A stretch of DNA of 64,000 nucleotides, taken from NCBI GenBank assembly GCA_010093815.1, contig ML996586.1. The stretch is one strand, 5' to 3'. This document shows, piece by piece, positions 7,026 through 40,185 of this stretch; the stretch's first letter is position 1, and the number at the start of each line of letters is the position of its first letter. The translations under genes were made by a program, and so were the position numbers. The DNA is from Pseudovirgaria hyperparasitica. Taxonomy: Eukaryota. Under the pieces are notes generated by a model, which was not told the origin of the DNA, ran no database searches, and saw only the letters and a list, made by a program, of their open reading frames with translations.

Positions 7026-7335
7026 CTCGCGTGTAAAGCCGAAGCTTTTTACCACCTTGGGAGGAAATGCGGAGGTGTAGAGCCCTAGAGCTAGTCCACT
7101 AGCGGACCGGTTAATCACTTACGCCACCAAGTTTAGCGTTGGGGAACTAAAAGGGCAAGCTGGCAGCACCATGGATCCGAGGCCGCCATGCATGAAATGA
7201 CATGTGCGTTGTACTGTGTCTATCTATTATACATAGGTCAGCGTTGCGCATCCGTCGAGCGCCAATTTGCGATTTTCTCCTCCTCTAAGTAGCTTGACAT
7301 CGAACAATCAACTGCCACGACCACCAACTACCAGC

Positions 7336-15600: not shown

Positions 15601-18600
15601 CCATATGCATTTATGAGGCCGACCCTGTCATGAGCACCCCAGAGCTTTTTCGTCTTCTGAGACATCTTCTCGCCACCTACACCGAGATAGTGTAAATATG
15701 GCGCGTCATCTGGCGTTAATCCGGTCTGATCGAGCAACGATGGGACGAAGCTGGCATGTGAAATTCTAAGTACTCGTAAGGCAAGGGCCAGGTCGTCTAG
15801 AAGGATCGTTCGCGAAGCAGATGTAGCACAAAGTCCATGTTTCCAAGCAAGAAACATTTCTCCAATGTGAACATCAAAGGCGCGGCTGGCAAGACAAAGG
15901 TAGGCTCCTTTACCTCCTAGATTTCTGGTAGCGGGGACAACTTCACAGATAAAGTCAGACTGGGCTTCAGTAAAAGCGCTCAGGTTACCACGGCTGACCA
16001 TGACACCCTTCGGTCTGCCCGTAGAGCCAGATGTATAGAGGAGGTAGGAATTATCGTCAAGGTTTTCTTCATTTGTGTCATTCGTCTCCTGTTCGTCGCT
16101 CTCATCTAAGCAGCGCTCAATATCATCATCGTTGCTACCGATCACTTTGCAGGCATACGGGATAACAACGTCATCGAGAAGCCCTTCAGTGCTGAAGATT
16201 AGTGTTGCACCACTGTCCTCAAGGAGAAAGGACTTTCGTTCAGCGGGGAAGCTCTCTTCTATTGGAACGTAACAGTTTGAAGATTTCATAATTCCAATCG
16301 CCACGGCAAAAGACCATAGGGTCCTACCCATACAGACAGCGATGGCCTTCCGGTGGGCATTCTTTGTGCGTAAAAATCGTGCAACCCGCTCTGCAGCTGC
16401 ATTAAGCTCACTGTAAGTCCAGCATACAGAGTCCGCATGAGTATCATGGATCTGGCTAGCAATCTCTACAGCTTTCCAATCTGGCTGTATTTCCGCCCAG
16501 TGTTCAACCCAATAGGTCGGGGAAACGGTAACAGGAAATTTTCTCGTTTCTCTGTGTGGTGTGATTGACAATAGTTCTTCTGGGAGAAAGGAAGTGAGGT
16601 GTTCAATGGGCTTATCAACATGATACACCATGGCAGTGACTAATGCATCAAGCTGTTTGCAGAGTAGCTGCTGTTGTTCATCAGATACTATACTCTGGTC
16701 GACAGAAAGTTCAAAATGTAGCTTTTCTGCCTTGGGCCATACGTGCAGCACCAATGGATGCTCAACAGAGAGGTCAAGCATATCCGGTGTCTGGGTCCAC
16801 AAAGAGGGTTTTCCGTCTTTCTCATCAACGGGTTCGTTCTCAACATTAAAAATGTAAAGTGCCGGATAGAGTATATCGTTGGAATCTTGGCCCAAGGCTT
16901 CTTTGACTACTCGTGGTCTGACTGAACGGTTTGCCATGACACTCCTGTAAAGCTGACTCTGGGTCTTTAAGACATCACTCATGAGCCCTGGCATCTTTCT
17001 GAACGGAACAGGTATCGTCGAAACAAGGGGTCCAATAGCCGTCGCAAGATCAGGGTGCACAACGCGCTCGTCCACTACCTCTCCAAGTAGTACGTTCTCT
17101 TTTTCTAGCATCTCCGAGAGCAGGAGACACCATGCAAGTCGGATTATCGTTGAGGCCGACGTCATGTGAAACCTTGAAGCTACGTCGCGAATCTTTTGGT
17201 AACTCAAGCTACTCTCAAATTCTTGCGTCCGGTGTACGATGTTGTCGTCAGAGTTTGACTTGCTTCGGAGGCCGACAAGGCCGTCTGCTTCATCATTATC
17301 AGAGAATCCATGAAGCGTCTTTCGCCAGAATGTATTGCAATTTTCTTGGCTGTCAAGAACGGAGGACTGTCTGACGGCGTCTTCCAATTGAGTACGTTTG
17401 GTCGGTTTTGAGAGACCGTCGTAGTACCTCTGCAAATCTTCCATGACGAAGCTTAACGATGGTCCATCAAAGACCGAGTGGTGTATACTGAACAGCATTG
17501 TTCGGCCCTCTTCATGTTTGAAGATGGTTACGGCCCACAATGGGCGCGAATACATTTCTTCATGATGCTTTACGTATAGTTCGTTGGCGCGTCTCTTTGC
17601 AGACTCTTGCGAAAAATCAGTCACTTCACGTTCTGACCAGTCGATATTCGCATCTTGATGTATCACTTGTAGGAATGTCAGAGCATGATCCTGAACAGCG
17701 CTCGGGGCGTTGGCGACACTAGCTGTGGCGAGAAAAGTAGTACGTAAAGCTGATGTATTAGAAGCCAGGTTTTCCCATGCAGCTCGAAGACGGGGCATGT
17801 CGATCTCTGAGCCTAGAGAAGAGGCGCGGTGAATCCAGTATGCTTGCGGCGATCGCAATGTCTCGCTGAGGATATTCTCCTGTATGACTAAAGCTGGAGC
17901 AACTGTGAAGGCGCCTCCTCTTGTAATATGACGCTTGACTGGATCATGCCAGTCACTATTAAATCCGGCTAGCGAACTCTTTGTCGCATTTCCATCAGCA
18001 TTCGATGATGACGACTTTGCTGCTAGATCTGCCAGAGTACGGGAACTAAGAGCTTCCATGACAGATATCGAGGAACCAGTTTTTCTTAGACGAGCAACGA
18101 GGCGAATTGCTCGGATGGAATCGAGGCCAAGAGCAGCAAGACTACTAGAAGGCCCAAGCGAGGACCTTGTAACTCCGGTAAGGTTGGCCACTATTTCGAT
18201 AAGGCTTTCGTGTTTCGCTGGCCATGCGCTAAAGTCACTGGCCGTCGATGCTCCTTCTCCCTCTATCAGGGATCTCCATTTAGAAAGGTCGCTAAAATGT
18301 AGGAGCCTGATGAGGGCTTTGCGATCGATCTTGTTGGAAACACTATGGGGTATGCGGTTTACCATGAGGTAGATATTCGGTAGCATAGCTTCGGGTAATT
18401 CCAACTCCGCCGACCTAGCAATCTCTTTTGCAAGAACAGCTGCTCTTGGATTTATGAGAGCTCTCAGATCCTGGGTATCCGCGAACTCCGGACTGACGAC
18501 AAAGGCTGCAAGTATATTCTCATCACCAGATGTGTCCGTAGGCGCACAAAACAAAACAGCAGCATTTTCAACAGAGCTATGACATTCCTGTATCGAATAT

Positions 18601-21600
18601 GCGATTTCACTAAGCTCCATACGGATGCCCCTGATCTTGATTAGATCGTCTTCTCGCCCAACGAACTCAAAAGTGCCATCGGAAAGCTGGCGAACCATAT
18701 CTCCAGTGAGATAGACTCGCCTGTCCAACATCGTATTGTAGACGAACTTCTTTGCAGCAATTTCTGGATCTTTGAAGTAACCGGGCGATAATTGTACCCC
18801 AGACAGTGCAAGCTCTCCTTGAGCACCTCTGAGGACAGGCTTCCCGTCTTTAAGGACATACGCTCCGACGGTCGGTAGCGGGAGCCCTATGTTGGAGCTG
18901 TTGTGCAAGTCACCATCTGCGCCGAATTGACGCATCGTTGACACAATCGTTGCTTCCGCTGGTCCATAGGTGTTGTAGGCTCTAGTACCCTGACTCCAAT
19001 CATCTGCGATAGATTGCGATAGCTTTTCCCCAATCATGGTCACGACCTCCACCGTGTTGAAATCTTTGCGTGAGAGTGTACCAGCAAATGCAGGTGTGCA
19101 GTGGATATGCGTCACCCTCGTTGCATTGCAAAGTTCCGTGATAGAGCCAAGAAGGATCTCACGCGTCGAAGAAATGACGGCTCCTCCCACTGCCCATGTG
19201 TAAAAAAGGTCTTGGACGAAGACATCAAAAGTGAAGCCGGAGAATTGGAGGCATCGAACTTGACCTCCTTTGACATCCGTGGGAATAGCGTGTGCTAGGG
19301 CCTTGATTGCTGCTACTGCAGACTTGTGCGTGATTGGCACGCCTTTTGGGGGTCCAGTGGTCCCTGATGTAAATATCATGTACGCCATATCGTCTTCAGA
19401 TATTTGCGGTGGATCAACGGCTGGTGTGGTACTATTTCGAGGGTTAACATTAAGGTCCTGGGAGGAGAGGTCTACAATAATAACCCCACCGGGAACAGAA
19501 TCAGGCGTGCACGACTCATGAACAAGCACTATTGGCCCGCCTGATCTTGCGATAAGCTCTCGTTTCCTGTTGGAGGGAAATGTAGCATCGATTGAGCACC
19601 AAGCAGCTCCTGCTTTCAGAAGAGCCAGGATGGCGATGTACAGCTTTGGGCATTTATCCATGCAGATAGGAACTATACACTTTCTCAGAGAGCCATATTT
19701 CTGTACGAGGATACCAGCCAGATTCGTAGCTCTCAAATCAAGCTCTTCATACGTCCACTGGGTAACATTGCTGGCGTTGTTAAGCTGCGCTTGAAACTCA
19801 AAAGCTACTTTTGACGATGATCCAGTGATGTTCCGCTGGAAGAGATCGTGCAACAAGATCTCAGATGTATTCTGCGTGTTGCAAGCCTCTACTGGGTATA
19901 TTGATAAAGTACTTTTTTGGCCTGCAAATTGGGCATCAAGGAACCGTGCTGCCGGATTCTCTAAGAGCCAAGTGATAATGTCCCCAAACTGTACCAGTAG
20001 CATTGATGCTGCTGATGGATTGAGGTGCGCATTCTTATACGTGACTCGAAGTTGTAGCTCGTCTTTCTCCTGTGGAAAGATCTCAAGCATGATCGGAATG
20101 TCTGCGTTCATTGCAGGTGTCTCCACAGGTCCCCACAGAGCCTGCGCATTAGATGCTTGCGTAAAAGCCTGAAATGCTAGTGTGGTATCGTATAGCATAG
20201 TATTTTCTGTGGTTCTTAGTGCGTCAAGTGGCATTTGATGGTGATTGATAGCTTCGGAGCTATGCTTCGTCAAGCGTTGTAGCACATCAGATACCCTATC
20301 GTCGGCTTTCGCTCTTACTCTTAATGGAACTATTGCATGTGTCAAGGCGATACAGTTGGTAAGGTCTTCATTTAGTCGATCAGACACGATACTGCCCATG
20401 GCTACATCAGTGGAGTATCCACTAAAGGCCATGAGAATTATGCTCCAGGCTGCTTGTAGAGTTGCGAGCGGTGAAGCTTTAAGTTTTCTGGCGCCTTGGA
20501 TCAACGACGAGAAACTCAACTTCGCAGTAGTCTCTGTCACCATCGAGTCTGAGGATACTAGGGACGGCCTCGCATATGATAAGCAAGGAAATTTAACCGG
20601 AGTGAAGTCTTGAAATTGGGCTTTCCAATAGTCTGCTGCGTCAATGTGGTCGGCGTCAAAATGTCTAGCGACGGCGATATCGACCGTTGTCCTCTTTGTG
20701 ATGTCACGATTATGGTAACGTTCCCACACAGCTTCTTCGAGTAGTTGCATAGATCCGCCGTCGAATATTGCATGGCATTGGCTCAATATAATAACCGTGG
20801 TACCATTCTCCGATATAAAAGAGAGAATCCAGGGAGGCTCTGTGAGGTCGATCTTTCTCTCAATATCCATGATGATAGTATCCAGAGTCTTGTTTGCTGA
20901 TCTGGACGAATTTTCAATGACCCTCGATCGTGCATCTGAAAATTTTGAACTGGGACTTAGAATACACTGAGCGAATGGCGAGAGCGCGTCGTCGACCTCG
21001 GTAAACACGGTGCGGTATATGGGGGCGTCTTGTAACGATGATATCCAGGCCTCCTTCAACTGGTCCATGTCAACATATTGTGCTGGCCGGTATATTGAAT
21101 GCTCAATGAATGCCTTGCGTGACTTTGGTAGGTTTTTGACAAAACTTGCAAGAATACTTGTCTGGATTGCCGTTGTTGGAAGCACATTTTCCAAGTCATC
21201 TGGCGCTAGACCCAGTGTTTTGACACAGTTGGATTCGTGCTTCTGGCGGAAAGCAGCTAAAATCCAGTGTCTTGACGGCGGGGAATAATTACATTGATCA
21301 TGATTTTTCGACTTTGTATGGTATAAATTGGCAATGTTTTTGATAGTTTGGCTCTGCAACACGTCACTGACGGTCAAACCAGTGACTTTATTCATTCGTA
21401 GAAGTTGAAGCAGCCGCACCGTTTGTAGACTGTCGATTCCAAGGCCGATCAAAGGCTCGTTGAGCTTGATGGATTTCACCGGAATACCAAGTAGCTTACC
21501 AATGCAAAGTCGGAGTGTCTCAACCACTTCATCGTCCAAATCTTCATCTAGATTTGTACTTTGATTGTTGCCGAGCTTGGATGTACGATAGTCACTGAAG

Positions 21601-23964
21601 ATCTGCTGAAGGATCGATCTTTTCACCTTGCCTGACGACGTACGCGGTAGGGCATCAACGAAGAAATACTCAGCTGGACGCATATAGGCAGGCAAATTCG
21701 CCTCAGCTATTTGTCGACAATTTGAAAGGAGAATCTCTTCATCAGTGTCAGGCTTGAGAGCGACGCATACTACTGGTCTTTCTGACCCAATAGCAGACTC
21801 ATCATACTTGAAGACTGTCGCAGCCAACTCCCGAATGCCTTCGACGTCGACGAACGCAGCTTCGATATCCCCTAGCTCAGTTCTTCTGCCACTTAATTTG
21901 ACTTGATCGTCATTCAATCTGCCCTGAAAGTCCACAACAAGCTGACCAGACGGACTCTGTACAAATCGTGCACGATCTCCTGTTCGATACATGCGACCAA
22001 ACTCAGGGCTCGTCACGAAGGCTTTTGCGGTCAGGTCAGGTCGATTGTGATAGCCTTCGCTAAGCTGAGGGCCTCCAATAGCAAGCTCGCCTGAAAAGCC
22101 CATAGGGAGTATGGTCGTACCTGCAGCTTTAGGATCTATTATAAACAGGGAACATGTCTCAAACGGGGTACCAACGACAGTCCGTCTGTCGTTGACCAAT
22201 ATATCAACGGAAGCTGTGCAATGTATAGCAGCTTCAGTCGGTCCATAAATATTGGTCAAGCCCTCGTAAGACAACCCATCTTTGAATGTACTAGATCGTG
22301 CTGGTGAGTCACGCGCGAAGCTCTGGACAACTTTGGGATTTATAACTTCCCCAGATACCCAGAGGCACCTTAAACTAGGTACATTTTCAGGATGCAGTAC
22401 ACTAGCCAGACTTGGAGTTGTAAAGACGATGTTTCCAGAGAGCTCGTTGATAGTACCTTCTGGATCAGTGAGGGTGAGTTCGCGATGACTCGAACACAAA
22501 GTGGCGCCAGTGGACCATGTTAGGAACATTTCCACCACCGATGGATCAAATGTTGTTGGTGCCATCTGAAACCACCGAAACTCATGAGCGTACCAGCTGT
22601 CACTAAGGAGTCGCTCATGAGAACTAATGGTAATAGTTGCAGCGAGATGGGATATCCGGACACCTTTTGGGCTCCCTGTAGATCCACTTGTAGACATAAC
22701 ATACGCCAAGTCTGTACCAAGTACATCGACTGATCTTCTGACAGCATGTTGGTCCTGAGGCAGCGATCTCCAGTCTGCGAAGACTTCTTCGACGTCGATC
22801 CAATGTAATGAATCGAGGTACTTTTGGCCTGACTGTTCATCTGCAGCCAGTACCCTTTGGCTTGACCTTTTGCCACAACCAAGTGCAATTGATGCAGATA
22901 TGTCCTGAAATACGCCATGTATCCGCGAGTTCGGGGCGTCAAGGGGTATAGGACAGAAAGCAAAGCCGGCTTTCAAAACAGCGAGCCAGGAGACATAGAA
23001 TGATACAGATGTAGAAGCACAGAACGGAATGATAGGTTGACACTGATGAGAATTTTTAGAAAAGTGTTCTAGGAGCTTAGCACTGAGATAGCTCGAGACG
23101 GAGTCTAGCTCAGCATACGACAAGATCTCATGAATTGCAGGTCTGGCAGATGTTTTGGCATGACTGAGGAAATCCAGTGCAATCCGGTCCGGATATTGCT
23201 TTGCTCGACGCTCGAATGCAGTATGCAGTCCAATCGGAGGTTTCCCTTCCGACCAGTTTGCATCTTGTCGGAGGAGCGGTGGCTCTGGATGAGGCGGGTA
23301 ATTGATTACCGACCTCCTCAAAGTCACACCGCTCTGTCCAAGATATGACAAGAGAGAAGCAAAGACAGAAGAGGCGATTTTCACGGGCATCAATGCACAG
23401 TCATATCGCAAACGAATCCTGCTTCGGCAAATCTCGATAACCAAACACTGTATATCGGTATCAGTTGTGTGTCCTATAGCAAAGCTCTAGATAGCATGAA
23501 CAGTAGATGATGCAACTTACTGCATTGGAAGGACTATAGTTCTGGAGATCATTGCATTCTTGAACCGTGGGCAGGCTCAACACAAACCCAGGGCTGCAGG
23601 AGTCTGAGACATTGCTCCAATCATGGCGAGTCATATCGATGATAGGGCTGTGATTTGCGCCGGGGGAACTGATAGGGCTGTCTGGCTCGCATGTTGCTAC
23701 GATACAAAAGTGTTTAAAATTGCTAGACCCGGAATAACCGTAGGTCAACTCGAAGCATAGTTCTCTCAAGCCAGTGAATGCAAAGAGGAATCGAACGAAA
23801 GCATTGATACTCTCGTCTTCTGAGCGGGAAGCAAATGCCTCTCCCAAGTCGTGCTCCAAGTATGCAAAGTTATGTGCAGCTCGCTCATTATTCACAGACA
23901 GCTTTGATGAATTCAATACCGAGTTTAGGGAGGGGACTGGCGTCAGATATAATGACGTAGCCAT
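9699..23964 (-). CDS. Ferrichrome-family siderophore NRPS (SidC/NPS1/SidN lineage), A-T-C-A-T-C-A-T-C-T-C-T-C, ~4730 aa
   Basis: Three A domains (TSGSTGSPKG, TSGTTGPPKG, TSGSTGRPKG; YGP(T/A)E; TGD), five T domains (GIDSL, GLDSI, GVDSL, GIDSI, GLDSI) and five C domains (CHAIFDG, HHSVFDG, HHAIYDG, HHSLYDG, HHTLYDA). A phase-0 intron at 23520-23448 joins the 148-codon exon 1. Confidence 0.95.
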
Positions 23965-24123
23965 AATCGTAGTTGCCGGAAATGTTTCGCAATGGCGGTG
24001 GAATCAATAAGTTCAAAAGAAGTCAGAGTAAGATTATTGGCCACACGGCATTTTCATTCTTATACTCAAACGACGAATGACTCGTATTATCCGTCTGTAC
24101 ACAGTCACTCGTGGCCAACGATG

Positions 24124-24167: not shown

Positions 24168-25095
24168 GAAATCGAGTTTGAGCACCGACAAAGTGAATCC
24201 AGCCCGTACATGGAAGCTGAATACGATGACATGCCGCACTCCCACCATTGATCTTGAACGCCAGGCAATAATTAACTCGTAAAGTGTGTGCATTGACCTA
24301 GTAGCATTAGCAGCTTCAACTAGCGAAGAAGCCTATGACGCGCACGCAACAGAGCCTCCCTTCTCGACATCCTCATGATGGCCAGGACTGTCGAGAGTGT
24401 GCCAGCCAATCGGATCCCGTTCGCATCCTCAGCGCGGGTGGTCGTTATAGGGCGTATAGTGTTAAGCCAGGCGGCGTATGGGAGTGGTAGGTTGGTTTAG
24501 CTTGTTGAATTCTATTTTGCAGCAATACGTGAGTGTGGGTTTTGGACGGTTGGAGTCGTTATTGAAAAATTGAGCTTCGATGACCAATCGATGATCCCCA
24601 GCCCCCACGCTAGATCTTGGTCGCTGGATGGATCATCTGACATCTGACAAGATAAGGAGGATCTCCGACCTACGGCCGCACAAACAGAGAATCACCATTG
24701 GAGGACGACCACTAACTATTATTCTCCACTATTCATCACTATTCTACACGATCGTCCACCTTCCCTCTTCTGTTACCCCCCCCTCCCCCCCCCCTAACGC
24801 TGTTCAGTCAGTCATGCTACACATCCCTATCCTTGTGCCTTCTCTTCTTTGCATTTTGCAACCTTAGCGTTAATACCTAGTCTAATAATTATGCACCGAT
24901 TTCAGTGAGCCATCTATGTATTCCGTTCTGCAATATCGCTCTGGAACCACAGGGTCCACTGTTGGTGCATACGTCAGGCACGGCCGAGCCCCTGGAAAGC
25001 CACTGTCGACATCAAAATCTTCATGAGCTTGTTCATGGGTGGGCAAAGTGACTTTGGATGTGTCTGTTCTGCAGCTTCTTTGACAGTTATAACTC

Positions 25096-26924
25096 ATGTC
25101 GACCTCTGAGGAAGAAAGCACCCGCCAACGGGCATTCCAGTCTCGTCTGCCGTCTCTATCCATTGTTCATGGGCCGTCAAGCCCCCCATTAGTTACATTG
25201 ACTCTTGGAGGACTCCTTGACCTTCAAGTTAGCAAATATGGCCCGCGAGAGTGCCTTGTTGTGCCCTGGACAGGGGCAAGATGGACCTACAATCAGCTAC
25301 GCGACCAAACCATCTTGATTGCCAACTCTCTCTTGGACATGGGCATCCGACCCGGGGACAAGATTGGTGTCATGGCAGGAAACTGTGAACAATTCGTCTC
25401 GCTGTTCTTCGCAACGACAAGAATCGGTGCCATAATCGTACTCCTCAATAACACATACACTGCTGAGGAGGCACAAAACACGCTTCAATATACACGTATG
25501 TTTCTCCCTATACCACTCTTCATCAACTTCCTCCAACGCCCACGCCAGAATGCCGCCTCCTCTTCACGACCCTCCGCATTGGTACGCTTTCGCAAGAACC
25601 GCTTCTTCGTGCTCTCTCAACCCTTCCTGAGCGTACGCCGGTCTTGGAAGAAATCATTCTTCTCACCGGCCCCTCGACCACCCACCGCACCTACACCGAG
25701 CTTGTATCTCACTCTTCCCGCTCACTCAGCCAGCTCACGTCGCTTGAAAAGCAAATCTCCACACACTCGGTCTGCAACATGCAATTCACATCCGGCTCGA
25801 CCGGTGGGCCCAAAGCTGCCATGCTCACCCACCACAACCTCATCAACAACGCCCGCTTCATTGGCGACCGTATGGCTTTGACCGCGCTCGACGTACTCTG
25901 CTGTCCGCCGCCCCTTTTTCATTGCTTCGGCCTCGTGCTCGGCCTCCTCGCCGCCATCACCCACGGCGGCAAGATCGTTTACCCCGCCGAAACATTCTCC
26001 GCCCAGGCCACCCTCGCTGCCCTCGTCGCGGAGTCATGCACCGCGCTCCATGGTGTACCTGCCATGATCGACTCGCTCTTTGCACTCCCGCAACCACCCT
26101 CGTTTCGCGCACAGCTGAGCCTACGCACCGGCATCATCGCCGGTGCCCCAGTGCCTAAGGCGCTGATGCACAAGATGGTGCACGACTGGGGCATGACACA
26201 ATTCACATCCTCCTACGGGCTCACTGAAGCCTCGCCGACCGTCTTCAATGCGTCCACCACGCTGCCCACCGCTCTCAAACTCGCCACCGTGGGCAGCGTC
26301 ATGCCGCACTGCTCGGTCAAACTAATCTCGCGCTCCGGTCGGCCGGTGCCGCGCGGCGTGCGCGGCGAGCTGTGCGTGGCTGGATACCAGCTGTGCAGCG
26401 GGTACTTTAACAACGCGCAGAAGACCCAGGAAGCATTCCGGTTGGACGGCGACGGCGTGTTATGGCTACATACGGGCGATGAGGCAGTGCTGACCGACGA
26501 CGGACTGTGTGCCATAACAGGCCGGTTCAAGGACATTATCATCCGCGGCGGCGAAAACATTTATCCACTAGAGATCGAGGAGCGGCTGTCCGCGCACCCG
26601 AGTGTGGCGCGTGCGGTAGTGACGGGGATCAATCATGAGCATTATGGCGAGGTTGTGGGTGCATTTTTAGAGTTGGAAGAGGGTGCACAGAGACCTGAGG
26701 ATGAGGAAGTCCGTGAGTGGACGCGTGCGGTGCTGGGTCGGCATAAGGCGCCTAGGCATGTGTTTTGGCTGGGTATGAATGGAATTCCGGATACTGTACC
26801 CATTACCGGGAGTGGTAAGGTGCGGAAGTTTGAATTGAGGCAGGCCGGTGAGGAGGCTCTGTCGAGGACAAACGAGGTGGAAGATGTGAAGACGACGGAG
26901 GGTGCAGATCGCGCGAGGTTGTAG
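25096..26924 (+). CDS. sidI: SidI-like acyl-CoA (mevalonyl-CoA) ligase, ~591 aa, PTS1-like C-terminus ARL
   Basis: QFTSGSTGGPKAAMLTH, PPPLFHCFGLVLG, SSYGLTEASP, WLHTGDE, IIRGGENIYPLEIEERL and TGSGKVRK motifs; intron 25496-25548; divergent from the siderophore NRPS. Confidence 0.85.
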
Positions 26925-27211: not shown

Positions 27212-28702
27212 CTATAAGACACTAGCCTCGATAACCCCTTTCTTACCCGACACTTGCTTCGGCTCCTGAACCTGCAGCAACGTCCTCAAAACTTTCTCAC
27301 TTCTAAGTCCCAGAAACTCAAAAACATTCTCCTCACTGCTGGCCAGCGCATTCAATGCCCAGATGCCGGTATCGCGGGCAACCGCATTCCGTTGGAAATT
27401 CACCCTATAATTACCATCAACAGTCAATTTGTTTCCGTCGTAAAGGTGAGACACTGAGCTCAGCATCGAATGCAGGTCCGCACGTTCATCGCCAGTCGCA
27501 AGGACTACTAAGTCGTACGGCTTGTTTTCTGGGACGTCTATCGTCGTAACTGGCGTGTTTGGCGTGAGCCTTATTGTGACCTTAGGTGAGCCAGGAGTGG
27601 GAGTCAAAGATGAGACGGTATGTGTGAAGTTAATGGCGAATTTATTCTTGCGCTGAGCGCGATAGGCGACCTTTTGCATGTACAGCATCTCGTAAAGGCC
27701 GTTTAGATTTTCTTCGGCGACTGTCGGCCGGGGTTTGGAAGGCTGATCCGGCTGTGAGGGTGATTTCCGGCGGAGTTCGTATGGTAAGATCCGGGATGGA
27801 CCAGTCGGTGTGTGCAGCAGCTGTGCGGTGCTAATAGATGTCAATCGACAATTTTATAAAGTGAGATTGGGGACATCTTACAAAGGGCTCCCATCTGTTG
27901 GTCTGAGTGTCCGATCGTTGACGAATAAGGTTCCCGTTGCATTGGGCAAGGCAGCGTGAAGATGCATGAATACCTCTACGGCCTCATTGTTCGCTCCCAC
28001 AACAGCGACATTCGATGGCTCATTTTTGTGCTTTGTCAAACCATCTCCAAGCTCTGCAAAATTACCTGTATGCACGACACGGTTATCCAGACCGATGAAT
28101 CTCAACTCAGGAGGTATCCTCATTTTCGCCCCTGTTGCAAATATGATCTTCTTTGCGTTAAGGATGTCGACTGTTTGCGAAACGGTGTCTTTTGCAGCAA
28201 CATTCCATGCAGCAACTGGTGGTGGATTTACAGCCTTGGTTCCAATGACTTCCTTGCCATATTTGATTTCGACGTTCGGCATATTCTCTAGTTTTTGGGC
28301 TGCCCATGCAAGATATTGACCCCAGACCTCTCGTGAAGGCTTCATTGAGCCAAGATTCAACCACGCGTCCATTTGCTGTGACCCACCTCTGCCACCGGCT
28401 TCCCAAGAGTAATTGACGAATGTAAACTCCGATCGAGGATTTCGTTGCATGGCCAAGTCTTGCAGAAAAGACGTTCTCATGTGGTTTGTCGGCAGAAAAG
28501 CTGAGGGTTTCCAATGGAATCGGTGCTGCTGCTCCAAAATAACAATTCTTTTCGAGGCATCGTGTTCGTGGATAGCAATGGCGAGGGACAATGATGATGG
28601 GCCGAAACCAACGAAGACATAATCATAGGAGCCGGTCTTGCTGGCTGCCAGAGAACATGGTGCTTCTCGCACAGCACCAGTGGATGATGCTTCGATAGAC
28701 AT
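27212..28702 (-). CDS. Divergent L-ornithine N5-monooxygenase (SidA/IucD)-fold flavoprotein, ~479 aa
   Basis: FAD motif VGFGPSSLSLAIA, SFLQDLAMQRNPRSEFTFVNY, PSRE, IIFATG, RPTDGSPF and YDLVVLATG; intron 27881-27831 gives an uninterrupted frame. The NADPH and substrate motifs are non-canonical. Confidence 0.85.
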
Positions 28703-29472
28703 TGCTTCAGGCCTGTTGTTCGTAGTGGATGATCAAGCGTCTGCTAGGACTGGTGCTGTCTATCAAAGTCACTCAGCTTAATGCAGGGCCAAGTGAATAT
28801 TCCAGGTAAATGGTTCTCGATCTGCAGTGTTCAGCAGTCTCTGTACCGAAGAGTGGAAATAGTCACGCGATCTGCTGGGCTAATCCTGTCACGGCCAAAT
28901 AGCTTGTAACAGGCAGGTCGACCCAAACGAGGTCTGAGCATTTGCCCGACAAAGGTCGCAAAAAAAAGTTGTCACCAAGTCTAGTTGCTACGTCACCCAG
29001 GTTCGTAATACCCCTGTAGGCGCGTGTGCCTGTGTAGCTCGGTTGGCTTCGGGGCCCATCGGTCGGTCACGTCTCGCCAATAGACCATGGATGGTGCATT
29101 TCAGGTTGGTCCTATTAGTGTGTAAACCAAGGGTGGGGTGCTTTAAGGCGCTTAAAATACCGAGCACGGATTGTAAAAGTAGCCATGAGGGTGCGCAGGC
29201 CTGGAAACGTGCAATTTAAATCCTTTGAACTCGTGTCGAGTAACTCGAGTTAGTATCGTGGGATCGCATCTGGTTTAGGCTGCGGAGATGGACAGTCTGT
29301 CTGTATGCAGTGTACTCAGACGATGGAATCATCTCCACAACAGCCCATGAAAACACCCGACGCTCAGATGTTCCATCCAACTTAGTGTCGATTGCCAGGG
29401 TACATAGTGTCAGTGTCTTTGGGCCTGTGGCTTGCCCATGCCGCCCCCCCCCCCCAGAGCCCCCCCGGTGTC

Positions 29473-29541
29473 ATCTGATAAGCCTGATTGGACGTATAAG
29501 GCGTAGCTAGATCAGATAAAAATTTCGTCGTCTTATCAGAT
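29473..29541. promoter_or_regulatory. Three SreA-type GATA boxes (ATCWGATAA)
   Basis: ATCTGATAA 29473-29481, ATCAGATAA 29511-29519 and TTATCAGAT 29533-29541, ~0.8 kb upstream of the sidA-like gene. Confidence 0.8.
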
Positions 29542-31102: not shown

Positions 31103-34100
31103 TTACGTGCTTGACGGCCCTTGAGCAGGTGTATCGTCTGCATCCTCCTTTCTATCCAGTGTCTGATGCAAGGCATTCACCTTGTACGTCTCACTGCTCT
31201 CCAATAATTCTCTGTGTGTCCCACTTGCTGTGCAAACACCCTCCTCGATCACAAAGATCCGATCCGCACGCTCAATTGTGCGCAGACGATGCGCAATCGC
31301 AACTACCGTGATGCCCCGCGCCGCCCTCTCCAGAGCGTCCTGCACCAGTTTTTCGCTCTCCGCATCCAGCGCACTCGTACCTTCATCAAGTAGTAGTAGT
31401 CTGGGCTTACGGACCAGAGCACGCGCGATGGAGAGGCGTTGCTTTTGACCACCTGAAAAAGCCGTACCATTGGGCCCACAGCGTGTGTCGTAGCCATCTG
31501 GTAACGCTGCAATGGTATCATGAATATTCGCCAACCTGCACGCAGCTTCGATCTCCTCGTCACTCGCCTCGTGACCTGGGCTTGCGCCGATACTCAGATT
31601 GAACCTGACGCTCCCTTCAAACAGTACACTTTCTTGAGGTACTATGGCGATATCGTTGCGAAAGTCCGTACCATGCTGCAGGGCAAGATTCCGCCCGTCC
31701 ACTTCTACAGTCCCAGAAGATGGGTCATAGAAGCGCTCAATGAGTGATATTATGGTGGACTTTCCAGCGCCTGAGGGGCCTACAAGGGCACAGAATTGGC
31801 CGGGTTTGATGTCGAGGCAGAGACCCTTGAGAATGATGGAGTCAGGGCGGTTAGGGTATGCAAAGACAGCGTCTTGAATCTTGATGCCCACGCCGCTCTG
31901 TGTGGAAGGTGTATGGTCGGATGATGATGCGCCTGGAGTCTTTTCAGTATCGCCTGAGTTCTTTGAATGAGAGTAGCAGTGAGGGTCGACCGCGGGGTCG
32001 AGGGGGCCATTGATCTTTTTATTGCCTAGGCCGATGAGGTCAAGTATTCGTGCTGCGCCGACTCGGGAGCGAGCAAAGTCAGGAGCCAAAGCGAATAGTT
32101 GACCACAAGACTGTGCGCTGAATAACAAAGCTGGGAGGACGATGAAGAACTGAGTTTGCGAGTAGCGACCCTCAACGATGTTCTTGGTGCCCCACCAATA
32201 CCCAAGTGCGTAGACCAGGTTGCTAACGCTGTACGCAGTAGAAAGCCAGACGTTACTGTAGGCGATAGACTTGACGGTAGCTTTGTATGGCTCTGAGAGC
32301 GACCTTCGATAGACTCCATGAGTCACCTTCTCCAAAGAGTACAGCGAAATCGTTCTGATTGAGTTCACCGCCTCGACAGTGATTGAGGTAGCTTGTGCAA
32401 AGGCCTTCTGATGGCGCTCTTGGAACTGAGCCAGCACACGAATGCGCATTATCCCGGATCCTAAGAGAACAGGTATACAAGCCATGAGTACTAGACTAAT
32501 CCTCCAGGCTATGATATTGGAGAGAATGATTCCTGCAACAAAGTTGATGGTGACTGCAAATAAGACACCCAACGTTGTTCCTGTCAAAGCTGCAACGGCA
32601 TTGGTGTCGGTCGTGATGTATGCAAGGAGCGTTGCAGAGTTTCGGTCATTGGTAGTGTGCCATGTGATGTCTTTCCTCAAAACCGTATGGAACGATGCTT
32701 GCCGAGCCTTGAGAAGGACCTGCTCCGATACCATTCCGAATAATGATCCACTGACCAAATTGGCGAAGAATTCGACAACAGCAAGGACGAAAAATAGGAG
32801 AGCGAAAAAGCTACCACGACTTCTGATAGTGTTACCATCTTGGCACGGACTTAACGCCGATATAGTGTGTCCAAAGATTACAGCTTCACCAGAGTATGAG
32901 CCTCCAACAATGATGGAACCTGTAAAGCCGATAAATGCCCAGAGTAGATGGGGCCGCACGAGTCGTCCCACCCCACGAAGAGTAGCACCAAGGGGAAGGA
33001 TCGTCTTCTCTTTCTTCTTCTTATCCTTCTTCTGCTTCTTGTTGCTGGTTTCCGCCACCTTCTCATCCAGTGGAGCCTCCTCCTGTGACGATGCTTCTAA
33101 GGTATCAGGTACGGCCTCTTTGCTATCGACAAACTTTGCTTCCTCGTCAGACTTCACATTGACCTCGTCAGCGCGCAAAGTTGTCATGGATGTGCGTGCA
33201 GAAGTTGTGTCAACGTCACCAGATCCAACTTCCTGAAGACGAACCATGCTCGCATAGATGCCATTATATGCCATGAGCTCGGCATGGCTGCCTTGTTCAA
33301 TGAGCTCTCCGTGTTTCATGACAACGATGTTATCGGCTTTTTTGATTGTAGAAATACGATGGGCAATGGCGATAGTGGTCCTTCCCTGTGACACATTTTC
33401 GAGAGCTTTTAAAATTGATTGCTCACTGCGAGAATCGAGTGATGATGTAGCCTCGTCCAAAAGAAGAATGCGAGGGTTTCGAACGACAGCGCGAGCAACA
33501 GCGATCCTTTGTTTTTGGCCGCCACTCAATCTGCCTCCGACATGGCCAACAGATGTCGCGAGACCATGCTGAAGACCATCTACAAAGCGCAGAACATCTG
33601 CAGCCGCAGCCGCATCCCTGACTTTCCGTACGATTTCAGTAACAACAGGGGTGCTAGCTTTGATGGCAGTATCCCAGTCGGAGCCATCTTGTACAGCTTT
33701 GACCAAGTCTGGAAGGCTAGAGTCAAGCAATGCCTTGTTGATGGGTGAGTCTCGATCAGCAGCACACAAGAGACCGTACGCGATGTTTTCGAGTACGGAG
33801 CGGTCGAAAAGAGATGGATCTTGCTGCACAGTACCAATGGAGCCACGGAGTGATGAAACGTTCAGATGCTTGAGATCGATGCCATCTAGAGTGATCGTAC
33901 CTGAGTCTGGATCGTAAAGCCGAGTTATCAAAGCTGCGAGGGTAGACTTCCCACTACCGGATTGACCGACGATAGCGGTATGCTTGTTCGCGGGGATATT
34001 TAATGACAGCTTCTTCAGGACTTGGACTCCAGGGCGTGACACGTAGGTGAAGTCTACATCACGTATTTGGATGTCTCCATTCACTGATGAGATGCTCTGG

Positions 34101-35285
34101 CCGCCGTCAGGATTGGTGCCGTCGATCTTGGATGGCCTGTTGATGGTTTCGTGCAGACTCTCGGATGACGCGACGGCGCTACCAAAGATCTGCAGGAAAG
34201 GAGCCACCTGACTCAGAATGAAAGAGGCTAGTTCTGTCAGTATGATAAGCTCTAAGTCTTCTTCTGTGTGGCTTACCATCAACAAGCAAGAAGATGACAG
34301 TATAGACAGCGCCGACGGATGACGAAGTACCATTCTCGTCTACATCTGCTGCTATGGTACGACTTCCCTGCCAGTATGCAACGGCGTTAGTCGAATATGC
34401 GATGAAGTAGAGCAGTGCAAGCTGAGTAGCGGCAGTAACAGCTTTTTTATATCCAGCCTTCTGGGCATCACTGAGATGCTTTAGGAAGTTCGCTTCCAGT
34501 CGAGAGTTTGCGTTGAAAGCATGCACAAGTGAGATCCTTGACAAACTCTCGGAGGCGATAGACGTGGCGGAGGCGATGGATGTTGACACAGCCCCTGAAT
34601 ACTTCTTGATGAAGTGTGTTCCGATGAAGGTCATGAGAAAATATGCGGGCACCAGAGAAACAAGTATTCCAGCCAGCTTTGAATCTTTGATGAAGGAGAC
34701 AATGTAGGAGGCGACAAAGTACGAGACGGTCGCTATCACAATGCCGACCTTTTCTGACGTTCCGGCCTGGATGGTGTCTAGATCGGTAGTGAGACGTGAA
34801 GACACATCCCCGGCAGGTCTTTCATCAAAGAAGGCGAGCTCCTGTCTTAGAAGACTCTGGAAGTACTCATCTCGCAGTCGACGAACAAGACGCTCGCCGA
34901 ACCAGCTCCAACATCCCGTATGGATGTAAATGAAGCAAAAGTTGGCGATGGTAACATAGACGACATAAAGAACCTTCTGAGTGACGGCGCTGCTGACCTG
35001 GCCATTGCTTCCAGCCTGCGAATCACTACACGAGGAAGAATTGAGATCATCAACAAGCTGGCCGAAGAGGATGCCGAGCAGTGGAAATGGTACACCTGCT
35101 GCAATGGCAAAGACAACACCACCTAGGAGGAGGAGGTAGTCGAGAGTGGTAGGGCCGGCACGTGTGAGTAAGCGGAGATATCCTCCAAACCGTATGGACT
35201 TGATGCCCGCCTGTCGGTGTTAGTCTCGAGAGCTTTTTGGCAGAGACAGTTGGAACCAACTCACCGTGATCTTATTTTCCTTCAT
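31103..35285 (-). CDS. Full-length ABCB/MDR-type ABC transporter (SitT-like siderophore exporter)
   Basis: TMD-NBD-TMD-NBD with GQSGSGKST/LSGGQKQR/LLLDEATS and GPSGAGKST/FSGGQKQR/LLLDEGTS. Exons about 35285-35265, 35210-34277 and 34227-31103 with GT-AG introns. Confidence 0.92.
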
Positions 35286-36217: not shown

Positions 36218-37564
36218 ATGGCGACGACTAACAGTACAAGTCCTTCTCCGAAAGACTTTATTCTCAAGCTTCCACATCCCTACTTGACCGCATACGGCAT
36301 CAAGGAAAAGAGTATTTCCGGAAAACTGCATTGTTTCCTAGATCGAATTCGATCTCCCAAGTCTTCTCTCCGGACGGCACAGGAACCCCCAGAAATACTT
36401 CACAATGTCGATCTCTACTTCACGCTTCCTGAAATCCCATCCGAACAAGACCAACCTCCAGAATCCAACAACCTCTGGTGGGCACGCGCACAACGCTCTC
36501 CGTCCGTAACCCTCACCTGGCAAAACTCTGCACCGTCGCCCGCACAAGTATGGCTCGTCATATACGCGCTCTACTCCCTTCATACCGACATCGAGCACTT
36601 TCGCCTCAATCTGACTGGTGGAGGCTCAGACACAATCAGAGATCACCTCCTTAATACCCTGCTCGCAACATCACACCCGTCTCCCACCGACAGTGCCACT
36701 CCAGCTCTCGATCTCCCTATTCTCGTTCTCCGCAGCACCTTCTGGCAAGGGGCCTCCTCCCCCTTCGGCCCTCGCCCTCTCTGGCTCCCTGAGCCAAACG
36801 CCCCCGGATCGCCCGTGAAACCCCTTTCTCAATACCCCCTCCCACCACTCTCCCACCGCCTCACCACCGGCTTTCCATCTTCGCGCGTACACGCCCACCA
36901 TCCCATTCGTCCCGCGAAACCCGCGCCCGGTACCACCGTTTACAGCCGCTTCATCCCCCATCTTGGCGAGCACTTCAGCATGGTCGCCCTCGACCACACG
37001 CTGCCCGCACACCTCGAGCTCTTCCACAAGTGGCAGAACGACCCGCGCGTCGCCCGCGGCTGGAACGAGACGGGCACGCTCGACCAGCACCGCAAGTACC
37101 TGCAAACGCTGCACGATGACCCGCACGTGTTGACGCTGCTGGCGGCCTTTGACGACGTGCTGTTTGCCTACTTCGAGGTCTACTGGGCGCCCGAGGACCA
37201 CATTGGCGTGCATCACGCATTCCCGCCGTATGCGCGCGGGCGGCACTCGCTTGTGGGCGACGTGCGGTTCCGTGGACCGCACCGTGTGTGTGCGTGGTGG
37301 GGCAGTCTGATGCATTATCTGTTTCTAGACGATCCGCGGACAGGGCAGATTGTTGGCGAGCCCAAGGCAACGAATAAGACGGTGCTGGAGTACGACTTTG
37401 CGCATGGGTTTAGTCTGGTCAAGTGGATGGATCTGGGGCATAAGAGGAGTGCGCTGATGTGGTGTGAGCGTGAGAGATTTTTCCAGTTAAGTCCATTTGG
37501 GTGGAATGGCAGTGTGCTGGGGCCGGATGGGCTGAATGCATTGGTAACGAGTGCGAAGCTGTAG
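36218..37564 (+). CDS. sidF: N5-hydroxyornithine acyltransferase (SidF/IucB-AlcB GNAT family), PTS1-like C-terminus AKL
   Basis: FWQGASSPFGPRP, HHPIRPAKP, YSRFIP, FHKWQNDPRVARGWNE, FAYFEVYWAPED, RGRHSLVG, HYLFLDDPRT..VGEP and DLGHKRSALM motifs; 448 aa. Confidence 0.88.
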   Translation: MATTNSTSPSPKDFILKLPHPYLTAYGIKEKSISGKLHCFLDRIRSPKSSLRTAQEPPEILHNVDLYFTLPEIPSEQDQPPESNNLWWARAQRSPSVTLTWQNSAPSPAQVWLVIYALYSLHTDIEHFRLNLTGGGSDTIRDHLLNTLLATSHPSPTDSATPALDLPILVLRSTFWQGASSPFGPRPLWLPEPNAPGSPVKPLSQYPLPPLSHRLTTGFPSSRVHAHHPIRPAKPAPGTTVYSRFIPHLGEHFSMVALDHTLPAHLELFHKWQNDPRVARGWNETGTLDQHRKYLQTLHDDPHVLTLLAAFDDVLFAYFEVYWAPEDHIGVHHAFPPYARGRHSLVGDVRFRGPHRVCAWWGSLMHYLFLDDPRTGQIVGEPKATNKTVLEYDFAHGFSLVKWMDLGHKRSALMWCERERFFQLSPFGWNGSVLGPDGLNALVTSAKL

Positions 37565-39896: not shown

Positions 39897-40185
39897 ATCA
39901 GATAAGATTAGCAAATAGTATGAACCAGCAGCAGGGAAGGGTGCGACACGAGTCACACAACAACTGCAAAGGTCCGTGTGCACCAGCATCAACATCACAC
40001 TTAGTATCCTTGCACCGTGTCCCATGATGTTATTGGCCACCAGTCATCGTTACAAGCGAGGTCGGGAACTGTCAATTTAGGGTTATCTGATCCGCAGCCA
40101 GATGCCGTTCTAGGTCTAGCTTCCAGCCGAGTGAAAGGTCTGCGGCGTCGACTGGCGTGCGGCATTATTTATCAGATTATCAGAT
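39897..40185. promoter_or_regulatory. Four SreA-type GATA boxes in the oxidoreductase/MFS divergent promoter
   Basis: ATCAGATAA 39897-39905, TTATCTGAT 40083-40091 and overlapping tandem TTATCAGAT at 40169-40177 and 40177-40185. Confidence 0.8.

Follow-up and report, generated by a model that had tools for sequence, protein, structure and literature searches.

The fungal hydroxamate siderophore pathway is regarded as solved, leading from SidA through SidL, or through SidI, SidH and SidF, to an NRPS, and genome surveys usually score each PF13434 match as an "ornithine monooxygenase". A summary of the ferrichrome and fusarinine pathway is available (PMC13462969), and siderophore biosynthesis has been put forward as a potential target for therapy against pathogenic moulds (PMC1971116). 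In a stretch of 64,000 nucleotides from Pseudovirgaria hyperparasitica (contig ML996586.1 of assembly GCA_010093815.1; hereafter the window), a siderophore cluster holds a gene whose product, like its relatives, is labelled ornithine monooxygenase in UniRef. An earlier note, made from the sequence alone, proposed that this product keeps the SidA fold but has lost the residues that bind ornithine and NADPH. This raises the question of whether the protein is an ornithine monooxygenase at all and, if it is not, which role it could have beside the other siderophore enzymes.

Gene model and signature residues

The gene is a two-exon, SidA-family (PF13434) gene on the minus strand, spanning 27212-28702. 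Its coding sequence of 1440 nt ends with a TAG stop and encodes 479 aa. The parts of the gene and the motifs discussed below are as follows:

28703..29264, minus: 5' untranslated region, covered by transcript contigs and free of joints
27882..28702, minus: exon 1, residues 1-273 and 2 nt of codon 274; Pfam PF13434, E 9.5e-46; SidA 4b63, E 9e-33
28592-28609, minus: FAD fingerprint GFGPSS, residues 32-37
28457-28480, minus: altered Q-loop MRTSFLQD, paired with MQISFIKD of SidA
27974-27997, minus: altered NADPH loop GANNEAVE, paired with GSGQSAAE of SidA
27911-27925, minus: FVNDR; LIMRD of SidA pairs with LFVND
27831..27881, minus: intron of 51 nt, GT..AG, directly after the Ser-Pro-(Phe) codons, a conserved position
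27212..27830, minus: exon 2, residues 274-479 and the TAG stop
27815-27829, minus: TAQLL in exon 2; SPFVNEIF becomes SPFTAQLL across the splice site
27716-27733, minus: PRPTVA in exon 2, opposite TNYSVV in some alignments
27482-27499, minus: ATGDER in exon 2; ATGY becomes ATGD
27215-27229, minus: C-terminus ..EASVL in exon 2

The uninterrupted spliced frame of about 479 aa described in the earlier note is open, and its predicted splice was confirmed in transcript-derived contigs. The exact junction of 27830 to 27882 was found in two contigs, one for each of the public runs X1 and X2 from the same sample, the kind of library not being on record, and these contigs are read as transcript-derived solely because they skip the GT..AG intron. 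They span the whole gene, to 29226 in X1 and 29264 in X2, and contain no further joint between 26900 and those limits. The gene is intact and transcribed. Fungal sidA genes also have the intron after Ser-Pro-Phe, its position being common to canonical and variant relatives (gene calls restricted to exon 1 end in ..SPL or ..NPL). Exon 2 alone has no Pfam match at E <= 0.01 and matches SidA residues 333-455 weakly (E 2.3e-4); it aligns with residues 278-446 of the variant relative P0006 (E 2e-19), and the protein is collinear with its relatives down to the last residues. The deposited form has 390 aa and is missing the last 89 residues of the 479-aa model; its Atlas model (pTM 0.76) has fungal ornithine monooxygenase clusters as structural neighbours (TM 0.81). 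The PF13434 match, the SidA structures and these neighbours place the protein, by both sequence and fold, in the SidA/PvdA/IucD family of class B, N-hydroxylating flavin monooxygenases.

Exon 1 was aligned with HMMER to the L-ornithine N5-monooxygenase SidA of Aspergillus fumigatus (4b63/5cku, E 9e-33; PDB 4B63 and others). The two proteins share PF13434, the fold, the FAD GxGxxS, the RNPRSxFTFxNY motif and collinearity. The N-terminal FAD fingerprint GxGxxG/S/N is present as GFGPSS, at the residues listed and as previously described, and the equivalent of Glu83 is retained; FAD is probably still bound. The remaining signature positions differ. SidA Gln102, Lys107, Gly255, Gln256, Ser257, Arg279 and Asn293 align with Arg76, Gln81, Asn238, Asn239, Glu240, Asn262 and Ala276, respectively, so that the canonical residues are replaced rather than conserved. 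The second (NADPH) fingerprint GxGxxA reads GANNEA, with Asn for Gly255 and Glu for Ser257, and the basic residue of the 2'-phosphate site (Arg279) is Asn262. Within the ornithine-binding set of Lys107, Asn293, Asn323 and Ser469, the first two are now Gln81 and Ala276, and the TNYSVV and HGLS segments are without counterpart. The losses proposed in the earlier note (MRTSFLQD, GANNEAVE, FVNDR, SPFTAQLL, ATGD and the absent HGLSDSLLS, for which the alignments give no counterpart in the protein) were all borne out. The TNYSVV segment, read there as PRPTVA, is gone, and depending on the alignment it pairs with PRPTVA or with a gap.

The residues concerned have assigned roles in SidA. Ser257 contacts the NADPH pyrophosphate and Arg279 the 2'-phosphate, ornithine is bound by Asn293, Asn323 and Ser469, and hydroxylation is lost in the K107A mutant, according to a review (PMC7347517). 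From the replaced residues, we infer that the binding of NADPH and ornithine has been lost and that the protein is unable to N5-hydroxylate ornithine.

A canonical SidA and a clade of variant paralogues

A canonical sidA had been suggested elsewhere in the genome, and one is present. A protein-database search with a relative's SidA as query reached P0322, a protein of 532 aa from the same species, encoded on a different contig. It carries all the motifs (MQISFIKDM, GGGQSAAE, SPFVNEIF, TNYGVV, ATGY and HGLSDSLLS), has Lys at the position of Arg279 and shares just 29% identity with the window protein. Variant and canonical copies also occur together in five other species, namely in Neodothiora, Lecanosticta, two Aureobasidium species and Rhizodiscina.

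Supporting the view that the variant is not peculiar to this genome, a fungal clade, mostly from Dothideomycetes, shows the same motif losses. In a 62-row tree, obtained by a quick LG+G4 search from rows chosen by the analyst, 15 variant rows fall on one side of a branch with an SH-aLRT support of 100, separate from the canonical enzymes of fungi and bacteria; their position outside all canonical rows may be due to long-branch attraction. The window protein lies inside this clade, in a subclade of five rows (support 98) whose other members come from Tothia, Rhizodiscina, Venturia effusa and Microthyrium. The members are called here cluster-embedded degenerate SidA paralogues, no published name having been found. 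Likewise, a literature search, with subscription journals outside its scope, found no report of SidA-family proteins without the NADPH motif, the nearest being the "sidA2" annotation in Cladophialophora carrionii.

Conservation within the clade is uneven. In 46 variant-type sequences, picked by motif and including near-duplicates, both glycines of the FAD GxG are present in all 46 and the Glu83 equivalent in 44. On the NADPH side of the same set, Gly255 is kept in 10/45, Ser257 in 3/45 and Arg279 in 3/44 sequences. Ser257 is replaced by Glu in 32 of 45, the position of Arg279 is Glu in 13 of 44, and the glycine loop has given way to a [DN]-x-E motif (G-x-[D/N]-x-E). At position 102 the members have R, G, K, Q, E, A or S, and at position 107 they have R, Q, N, S, D, H or M, a variability that fits a protein that would not need a fixed catalytic constellation. 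Some members (Phaeomoniella, Exophiala and three others) retain GxGQxAAE, so that the clade may descend from an active enzyme that had a different substrate. In a species-matched comparison, the variants share 34% identity and the canonical SidAs 55%, the variants losing conservation most sharply around the Arg279/SPFVNE and HGLS segments and the Q-loop.

The variant clade is under strong purifying selection, judging from members found in metagenome loci: the dN/dS of four variant genes, excluding the window gene, was 0.044-0.092 over exon 1 in 6/6 pairs. One lineage under strong selection is also without the ATG motif and the Trp90 equivalent. The nearest relative of the window protein, P0004, is 59% identical over exon 1 and shares its GGRGGS insertion, NNEAVE and FVNDR. 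The end branch of the window protein measures 0.99; of the remaining four rows of the subclade, three measure 0.51-0.65 and P0048 is longer (1.2). The tyrosine of ATGY is present in 12 of the 13 other full-length variants and is Asp in the window protein. Because of this long branch and the Asp, the window protein may be less constrained than its relatives.

The siderophore cluster

The surroundings of the gene consist of the following features:

9699..24003, minus: NRPS, A-T-C-A-T-C-A-T-C-T-C-T-C, N-terminal limit approximate
25093..26924, plus: SidI-like acyl-CoA ligase (AMP-binding and AMP-binding_C), convergent neighbour, at least one intron, C-terminal -ARL
29473-29481 (plus), 29511-29519 (plus) and 29533-29541 (minus): three perfect ATCWGATAA boxes (extended SreA-type GATA) in the promoter region of the SidA-like gene
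31103..35219, minus: ABC transporter, two ORF pieces, upstream of the SidA-like gene in the same orientation
36218..37564, plus: SidF-family N5-hydroxyornithine transacylase-like GNAT (Acetyltransf_8), C-terminal -AKL
37768..39402, minus: FSP1/AIFM2-like FAD/NAD(P)H oxidoreductase, three ORF pieces
41176..42870, plus: MFS transporter, main ORF piece

The cluster is atypical in that fusarinine-type accessory genes accompany an NRPS of ferrichrome type, and its SidF-like GNAT shares just 44-48% identity with the 23 other proteins in its alignment. The placement of the SidA-like gene is conserved. In all five long variant-type metagenome loci that were annotated, the variant gene and an AMP-binding ligase gene are convergent, with a SidD-type NRPS nearby, and the same pairing is seen in the window, where the ligase (plus strand) faces the SidA-like gene (minus strand). 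The window ligase shares 58% identity (265/455) with the ligase that is paired convergently with the variant gene of locus L026. The C-termini of the partner enzymes are the classic peroxisomal tripeptides -ARL, -AKL and -SKL, and those of the variant proteins are [S/A]-[V/M/T/R]-L, in some cases -ARL. In Aspergillus, SidI, SidH and SidF are peroxisomal (PMC3709128).

The earlier note had also pointed to three perfect ATCWGATAA boxes upstream of the gene. They lie at 29473-29541, which places them 771-839 bp before the ATG and some 210-280 bp past the 5' end of the transcript contigs. ATCWGATAA is named as the consensus of the SreA site in PMC10382037. The motif occurs 9 times in the window, compared with 1.34 expected, and 0/100 shuffles reach 9. 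Two further boxes, at 35544 and 35724, are in the promoter common to the SidF-like GNAT and ABC genes, and four (39897-40185) lie between the FSP1-like and MFS genes.

Known clusters show related arrangements. In Histoplasma capsulatum, SID1, described as the L-ornithine monooxygenase that catalyses the first committed step and, in the title of the source, as required for host colonisation, adjoins the acyl-CoA ligase gene SID4 in an iron-regulated cluster with OXR1, NPS1, ABC1 and MFS1; that pair is divergent, whereas the pair in the window is convergent (PMC2275787). Also related is the "SidA2" of C. carrionii (CLCR_02414), a second ornithine-monooxygenase homologue inside a sidD/sidF/sidH/sidI cluster that also holds ABC and MFS transporters, as in the window, while sidA1 sits with sidC (PMC10382037). 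The likeness is one of description only: SidA2 is treated as an ornithine monooxygenase, with neither discussion of its motifs nor measurement of its expression in the available part of that source.

Accessory protein, flavoenzyme or relic

Taken together, the residues, the clade and the cluster suggest, with about even confidence, that the gene encodes a conserved SidA-derived accessory protein that is no longer an NADPH-dependent ornithine N5-hydroxylase, is probably FAD-binding and is most likely non-catalytic. The protein would be made, keep the SidA fold and probably still bind FAD, ornithine N5-hydroxylation being supplied by the canonical SidA encoded elsewhere in the genome. Acidic or helix-capping residues of G-x-[D/N]-x-E may fill the empty phosphate site, and the lysine that holds the ornithine carboxylate in SidA has been lost in the clade as well. 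Because of the strong purifying selection and the convergence with a SidI-like ligase in siderophore NRPS clusters, the protein would be an accessory part of the acyl-N5-hydroxyornithine (SidI/SidF) branch, as a structural or regulatory partner. The lost motifs, the variability at the former active-site positions and the low dN/dS of relatives lend indirect support to a pseudoenzyme, a dead homologue retained for a non-catalytic role. A precedent for such a contact is found in Schizosaccharomyces pombe, where the ornithine N5-oxygenase Sib2, required for ferrichrome biosynthesis, physically binds the N5-transacetylase Sib3 (PMC11424930). By analogy, a degenerate paralogue could retain a non-catalytic transacylase contact of the Sib2-Sib3 kind. 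A binding test of the SidF-like GNAT with the 390-aa form, in which the last 89 residues are missing, scored 0.00 in a run whose controls were not folded, a score that weighs neither for nor against such a contact.

The roles listed in the earlier note (a scaffold or regulator, an FAD-only enzyme or an enzyme for another substrate) are still the right ones. The second of them is the main competitor of a non-catalytic accessory protein: a working flavoenzyme with new chemistry, in which FAD is reduced by the substrate or serves a non-redox role and NADPH is unneeded, for example a peroxisomal-type oxidase or isomerase that would act on an ornithine- or acyl-derived siderophore intermediate. This is judged unlikely, yet several observations favour it. 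The FAD-binding features are invariant across the clade, selection is strong, and the conserved Asp/Asn-x-Glu motif that replaces the NADPH loop (Glu in 32/45) could be a new ligand site, hence the mark of a genuine enzyme and not of a dead one. The peroxisomal-type C-termini of the partner enzymes and the [S/A]-[V/M/T/R]-L or -ARL ends of the variants point the same way, many peroxisomal flavoproteins being NADPH-independent oxidases. However, the former substrate positions have acquired no new invariant residue, the ATG motif and the Trp90 equivalent are lost in one strongly selected lineage, the ATGY tyrosine is Asp in the window protein, and we know of no step in ferrichrome or fusarinine biosynthesis that requires such a reaction.

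It is highly improbable that the protein is still an N-hydroxylase, in which NADH or a separate reductase (e.g., FSP1-like) replaces the bound NADPH and whose substrate is possibly not free ornithine. The fold and FAD site are retained, SidA R279E prefers NADH (PMC7347517) and Glu occupies that position in 13/44 variants; moreover, the cluster contains an FSP1/AIFM2-like NAD(P)H oxidoreductase gene with iron boxes, and the Histoplasma siderophore cluster includes the oxidoreductase OXR1 (PMC2275787). On the other hand, the change goes beyond the 2'-phosphate arginine, the pyrophosphate loop itself being now Asn/Asn/Glu; neither Lys107 nor Asn293 is retained, nor are the segments of Asn323 and Ser469; and the genome already has a canonical SidA. 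A two-component system with the FSP1-like neighbour as reductase was kept as a minor rival only, a Pyr_redox_2-type neighbour being found in 0/5 annotated variant loci.

Least probable is a transcribed, open but functionless relic that is being lost in this species: the end branch is the longest of the subclade except P0048, the Tyr-to-Asp change in ATGY is unique, exon 2 is below Pfam significance, a GGRGGS insertion is present, and the cluster is atypical with a SidF-like GNAT of 44-48% identity, but the frame of 479 codons is open, its transcript is correctly spliced, collinearity reaches the last residues, P0004 has the same insertion, NNEAVE and FVNDR, and the three perfect iron boxes are retained. 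The argument of the earlier note against simple decay is strengthened, since the gene belongs to a conserved syntenic clade whose other members have low dN/dS.

For the accessory protein and its clade, a wider proposal is offered tentatively: the clade would be either an obligatory non-catalytic subunit of the peroxisomal SidI/SidF machinery or an NADPH-independent flavoenzyme, with the NADPH site turned into an acidic, self-capped pocket. Judging by residues, one class of PF13434 matches cannot be ornithine monooxygenases. This class is expressed, conserved across class-level divergence, under strong purifying selection and fixed beside a SidI-like ligase, which suggests that an accessory function is missing from the current picture of the acyl-hydroxyornithine branch. 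If true in either form, the clade would represent an unrecognised component of fungal hydroxamate siderophore biosynthesis. It would also offer a natural case of a class B flavoprotein minus its NADPH site, informing how cofactor binding is coupled to flavin chemistry. The presence of "two sidA genes" in Dothideomycete and black-yeast genomes is not to be taken as redundancy. The Onygenales proteins P0035 and P0155, unlike the window protein, carry the canonical motifs and cluster with canonical SidAs.

Gene model and residues lost against SidA

The SidA-family gene was spliced from the window sequence as follows:

28702-27882, minus strand: exon 1, starting with ATG at 28702
27831-27881, minus strand: intron of 51 nt, GT..AG
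27830-27212, minus strand: exon 2, ending with TAG at 27212-27214

The coding sequence of 1440 nt gives 479 aa, the length of the spliced open frame proposed in the earlier note. The splice joint was seen in two public runs from one sample (kind of library unrecorded), whose contigs connect 27830 exactly to 27882 and skip 27831-27881. The simplest account of such an exact join over a GT..AG intron, on the same strand as the gene, is a spliced transcript, so that the gene is transcribed. In these contigs, no second joint was found from 26900 to 29226/29264. The deposited protein P0003, named 'hypothetical protein' in the database and L-ornithine N5-monooxygenase in UniRef, has only 390 aa and ends in ATGDER. 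Because the contigs lack a second intron and the final 89 residues of the 479-aa protein can be aligned to clade relatives nearly to the end (E 2e-19), the longer model is right, and the public one looks truncated in its 3′ part (27212-27499). A low-depth contig of one run (X2, depth 5) lies at 29546-29700, just upstream of the GATA boxes, and may represent a weak upstream or antisense transcript.

Exon 1 matches PF13434 (E 9.5e-46) and the A. fumigatus SidA structures 4b63 and 5cku (E 9e-33), while exon 2 alone has no Pfam match at E <= 0.01 and gives a weak alignment to SidA residues 333-455 (E 2.3e-4). The SidA fold is supported by Pfam, by the match to the SidA structure and by the structural neighbours of a predicted model. 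The 4b63 chain is full length (501 residues), so that alignment positions are residue numbers. The FAD fingerprint, GFGPSS, is intact. In contrast to 4b63, Gln102 and Lys107 are replaced by Arg76 and Gln81, Gly253-Ser-Gly-Gln-Ser257-Ala by Gly236-Ala-Asn-Asn-Glu240-Ala, and Arg279 by Asn262. Against P0322, this species' canonical SidA, the segment SPFVNEIF is paired with SPFTAQLL, so that Ala276 faces Asn293, and TNYGVV is paired with PRPT and a gap; ATGY has become ATGD, and the alignments contain no counterpart of HGLSDSLLS. The earlier note had described the intact fingerprint and these motif changes (with TNYSVV as the lost motif), and all of them are borne out.

In A. fumigatus SidA, Ser257 contacts the NADPH pyrophosphate and Arg279 the 2′-phosphate, Lys107 is essential, hydroxylation being lost in K107A, and ornithine is bound by Asn293, Asn323 and Ser469 (PMC7347517; see also PMC7359926). 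By its sequence, the protein is a PF13434 member that fails three of the defining functional features of N-hydroxylating monooxygenases, so that the annotation as L-ornithine N5-monooxygenase should be dropped.

A conserved clade of variant paralogues

Searched exhaustively with HMMER, exon 1 matched 890 proteins at E <= 1e-3. The best match after the protein itself was P0004, an exon-1 fragment with 59% identity, followed by matches of at most 40%. Those at about 35-40% are not canonical SidAs but variants sharing the losses: they carry M[R/K]T..L[Q/R]DL where canonical proteins have MQISFxKD and G-x-[D/N]-[D/N/Q]-E-A-[A/V]-E where these have GxGQSAAE, and they lack SPFVNE, NYSVV and HGLS. 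The named Dothideomycete variants come from Tothia, Rhizodiscina, Venturia effusa, Microthyrium, Lecanosticta, Neodothiora and Aureobasidium; Pseudovirgaria hyperparasitica is itself a Dothideomycete (order Acrospermales). Forms from the Eurotiomycetes Phaeomoniella and Exophiala have kept GDGQxAAE and lost the lysine. Among database entries, many 'proteins' of about 250-310 aa with ..SPL or ..NPL at the end result from gene calls that cover exon 1 alone and run on into the intron.

The orthologue tree advised in the earlier note was built by a quick LG+G4 search on 62 chosen rows (14 variants besides the window protein, 11 canonical SidAs from those species or from relatives, 16 bacterial proteins and 20 further fungal ones). 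In this tree, a branch with an SH-aLRT of 100 separates the 15 variant rows from all others, and the window protein falls inside a 5-row subclade (support 98). The protein is not a one-off but a member of a conserved paralogue clade.

The guess that a canonical sidA exists elsewhere in the genome proved correct. Of 8000 candidates in a protein-database search with a canonical Dothideomycete SidA, 777 passed E <= 1e-120. The best 120 of these include P0322 (532 aa), listed as 'L-ornithine N5-oxygenase sida, partial [Pseudovirgaria hyperparasitica]', which is encoded on a different, larger contig, shares 29% identity with the window protein and carries all motifs (MQISFIKDM, GGGQSAAE, SPFVNEIF, TNYGVV, ATGY and HGLSDSLLS). 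A variant and a canonical copy occur together in five further species. Canonical and variant genes have in common an intron directly after the Ser-Pro-(Phe) codons, which fits an origin of the variants by duplication of a fungal sidA.

Residues were tabulated for 46 variant-type sequences chosen by motif, some of them near-identical (the window protein with 13 others of full length, 20 fragments and 12 exon-1 ORFs from metagenomes). All 46 have both FAD glycines and 44 have the Glu83 equivalent, whereas Gly255 is kept in 10 of 45, Ser257 in 3 of 45, with Glu at this position in 32, and Arg279 in 3 of 44. Lys107 occurs in none of the 46, a count that is partly circular since the rows were chosen by motif. 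The former substrate positions are variable across the clade. Over six species (15 pairs), mean pairwise identity is 34% for the variants and 55% for their canonical SidAs; relative to the latter, conservation among the variants is lowest near Arg279/SPFVNE, at HGLS and in the Q-loop, and highest in the N-terminal FAD segments. Exon-1 dN/dS, which the earlier note had also recommended, is 0.044-0.092 (Nei-Gojobori) in all six pairs among four related metagenome variant genes (L060, L061, L074 and L076), located at about 9900-11490 in loci with 10-kb flanks. These genes belong, with L059 and L077, to a lineage with the Q-loop AGS[S/T]F[L/M]RDL, in which the Trp90 equivalent and ATG(Y) are also lost (ATTE/ASPE). 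The low dN/dS and the residue pattern together indicate that these variant genes are functional and that selection preserves something other than the SidA active site.

The siderophore cluster and its counterparts

Pfam scans of long ORFs in the window named the neighbouring genes:

9699 to about 24003, minus strand: NRPS, domains A-T-C-A-T-C-A-T-C-T-C-T-C
25093-26924, plus strand: SidI-like acyl-CoA ligase, convergent with the SidA-family gene, C-terminus -ARL (26900-26924)
29473-29541: three ATCWGATAA boxes upstream of the SidA-family gene
31103-35219, minus strand: ABC transporter (Pfam)
between the ABC and GNAT genes: two ATCWGATAA boxes
36218-37564, plus strand: SidF-like GNAT (Acetyltransf_8), C-terminus -AKL (37550-37564)
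37768-39402, minus strand: Pyr_redox_2 gene, best solved relatives FSP1/AIFM2 (E 2e-16)
39897-40185: four ATCWGATAA boxes in the promoter common to the FSP1-like and MFS genes
41176-42870, plus strand: MFS transporter (Pfam)
2-1827, plus strand, outside the cluster: NB-ARC/DUF7779 and TPR (NLR-like) gene, cut off by the start of the window
2522-3868, minus strand, outside the cluster: glutamine-synthetase-domain gene
7237-7941, plus strand, outside the cluster: HsbA-domain gene

The NRPS layout, which we take to be that of a ferrichrome synthetase, contains no SidD N-terminal domain detectable by Pfam, and the cluster combines this ferrichrome-type enzyme with accessory genes of the fusarinine branch (SidI-like ligase and SidF-like GNAT). 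It also includes the FSP1/AIFM2-like FAD/NAD(P)H oxidoreductase gene. An assembly gap of 10 N lies at 49491-49500, in an otherwise unannotated region (43-50 kb) with short ORFs only.

The three perfect ATCWGATAA boxes reported upstream of the gene are present. The window has nine such boxes versus 1.34 expected, a number reached in none of 100 shuffles, and all nine fall within three promoter regions of the cluster. ATCWGATAA is the extended SreA site (PMC10382037).

When metagenome contigs were scanned with the clade alignment, 157 stretches matched and 141 of these were relatives; 80 were kept, 12 of them variant-type by motif. Five variant loci with long flanks were annotated (L026, L040, L060, L061 and L074), L076 and six others being left out; as L060/L076 and L061/L074 are close pairs, about four independent lineages are represented. 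All five have an AMP-binding ligase directly downstream of the variant gene and convergent with it, and an NRPS with a SidD N-terminal domain nearby. DUF1749, the SidJ esterase family, was found in four, ABC transporters in two, and an MFS transporter, a SidF GNAT and an enoyl-CoA hydratase ending in -SKL in one each; no FSP1/AIFM2-like gene was seen in the five. Between the window ligase and its L026 counterpart, identity is 58%. The L026 GNAT is 89% identical to an Aureobasidium melanogenum protein named SidF, and many of 22 SidF-family database proteins are about 70% identical to it, whereas the window GNAT shows 46% identity to the L026 GNAT and 44-48% to the 23 others aligned (the 22 and L026). 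The product of the window cluster may carry an unusual acyl group.

The tripeptides -ARL and -AKL are classic peroxisomal signals. The ligase ends in -ARL in the window and in -AKL in four of the annotated loci. The window protein ends in -SVL (27215-27229) and the variants in -SVL, -AML, -AVL, -ATL or sometimes -ARL, a conserved [S/A]-x-L pattern that resembles weakened peroxisomal signals, as a hint only. In Aspergillus, SidI, SidH and SidF are peroxisomal (PMC3709128).

Possible function and history

The observation and the clade are solid, the mechanism less so. With Asn, Asn and Glu for Gly255, Gln256 and Ser257, and Asn for Arg279, NADPH could not be bound in the manner of SidA; the Asp/Asn and Glu at the helix start would act as helix-capping-like residues filling the unused phosphate site. 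Likewise, without Lys107, Asn293 and the Asn323 and Ser469 segments, ornithine could not be held as in SidA. We give an even chance to an accessory role in the SidI/SidF acyl-hydroxyornithine branch, for a protein that does not hydroxylate, probably holds FAD and is probably non-catalytic. In S. pombe, the oxygenase Sib2 binds the transacetylase Sib3 (PMC11424930), a precedent for non-catalytic contact by a SidA-family protein. A possible but distinctly less likely reading, for which the conserved acidic motif speaks, is a flavoenzyme that works without NADPH and has a new chemistry. A hydroxylase supplied by NADH or by a separate reductase appears very improbable for a protein that has also lost Lys107. 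Least probable, by a little, is a relic in P. hyperparasitica. In its favour, the end branch of the window protein is long, at 0.99 versus 0.51-0.65 in three of the four other subclade rows (1.2 in P0048), and no other variant shares its Asp at the tyrosine of ATGY, a position with Tyr in 12 of the 13 remaining full-length variants.

In the literature covered, which lacks most subscription journals, SidA-family proteins devoid of the NADPH motif were found nowhere described. In C. carrionii, a 'sidA2' lies in a cluster with sidD, sidF, sidH, sidI, ABC and MirD genes while sidA1 adjoins sidC; in that work, sidA2 was not followed up (PMC10382037). In Histoplasma, the canonical SID1 adjoins SID4, a ligase, in a cluster that also has OXR1, NPS1, ABC1 and MFS1 (PMC2275787). 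Both clusters share with the variant loci the embedding of a SidA-family gene among siderophore genes, and that of Histoplasma, similar to the window cluster, includes an oxidoreductase (OXR1 there, FSP1/AIFM2-like here). A plausible history is that a cluster-embedded SidA adjoining the ligase is the old arrangement and that, wherever hydroxylation passed to a second, canonical copy, the embedded one lost its NADPH and ornithine sites while being retained for another purpose.
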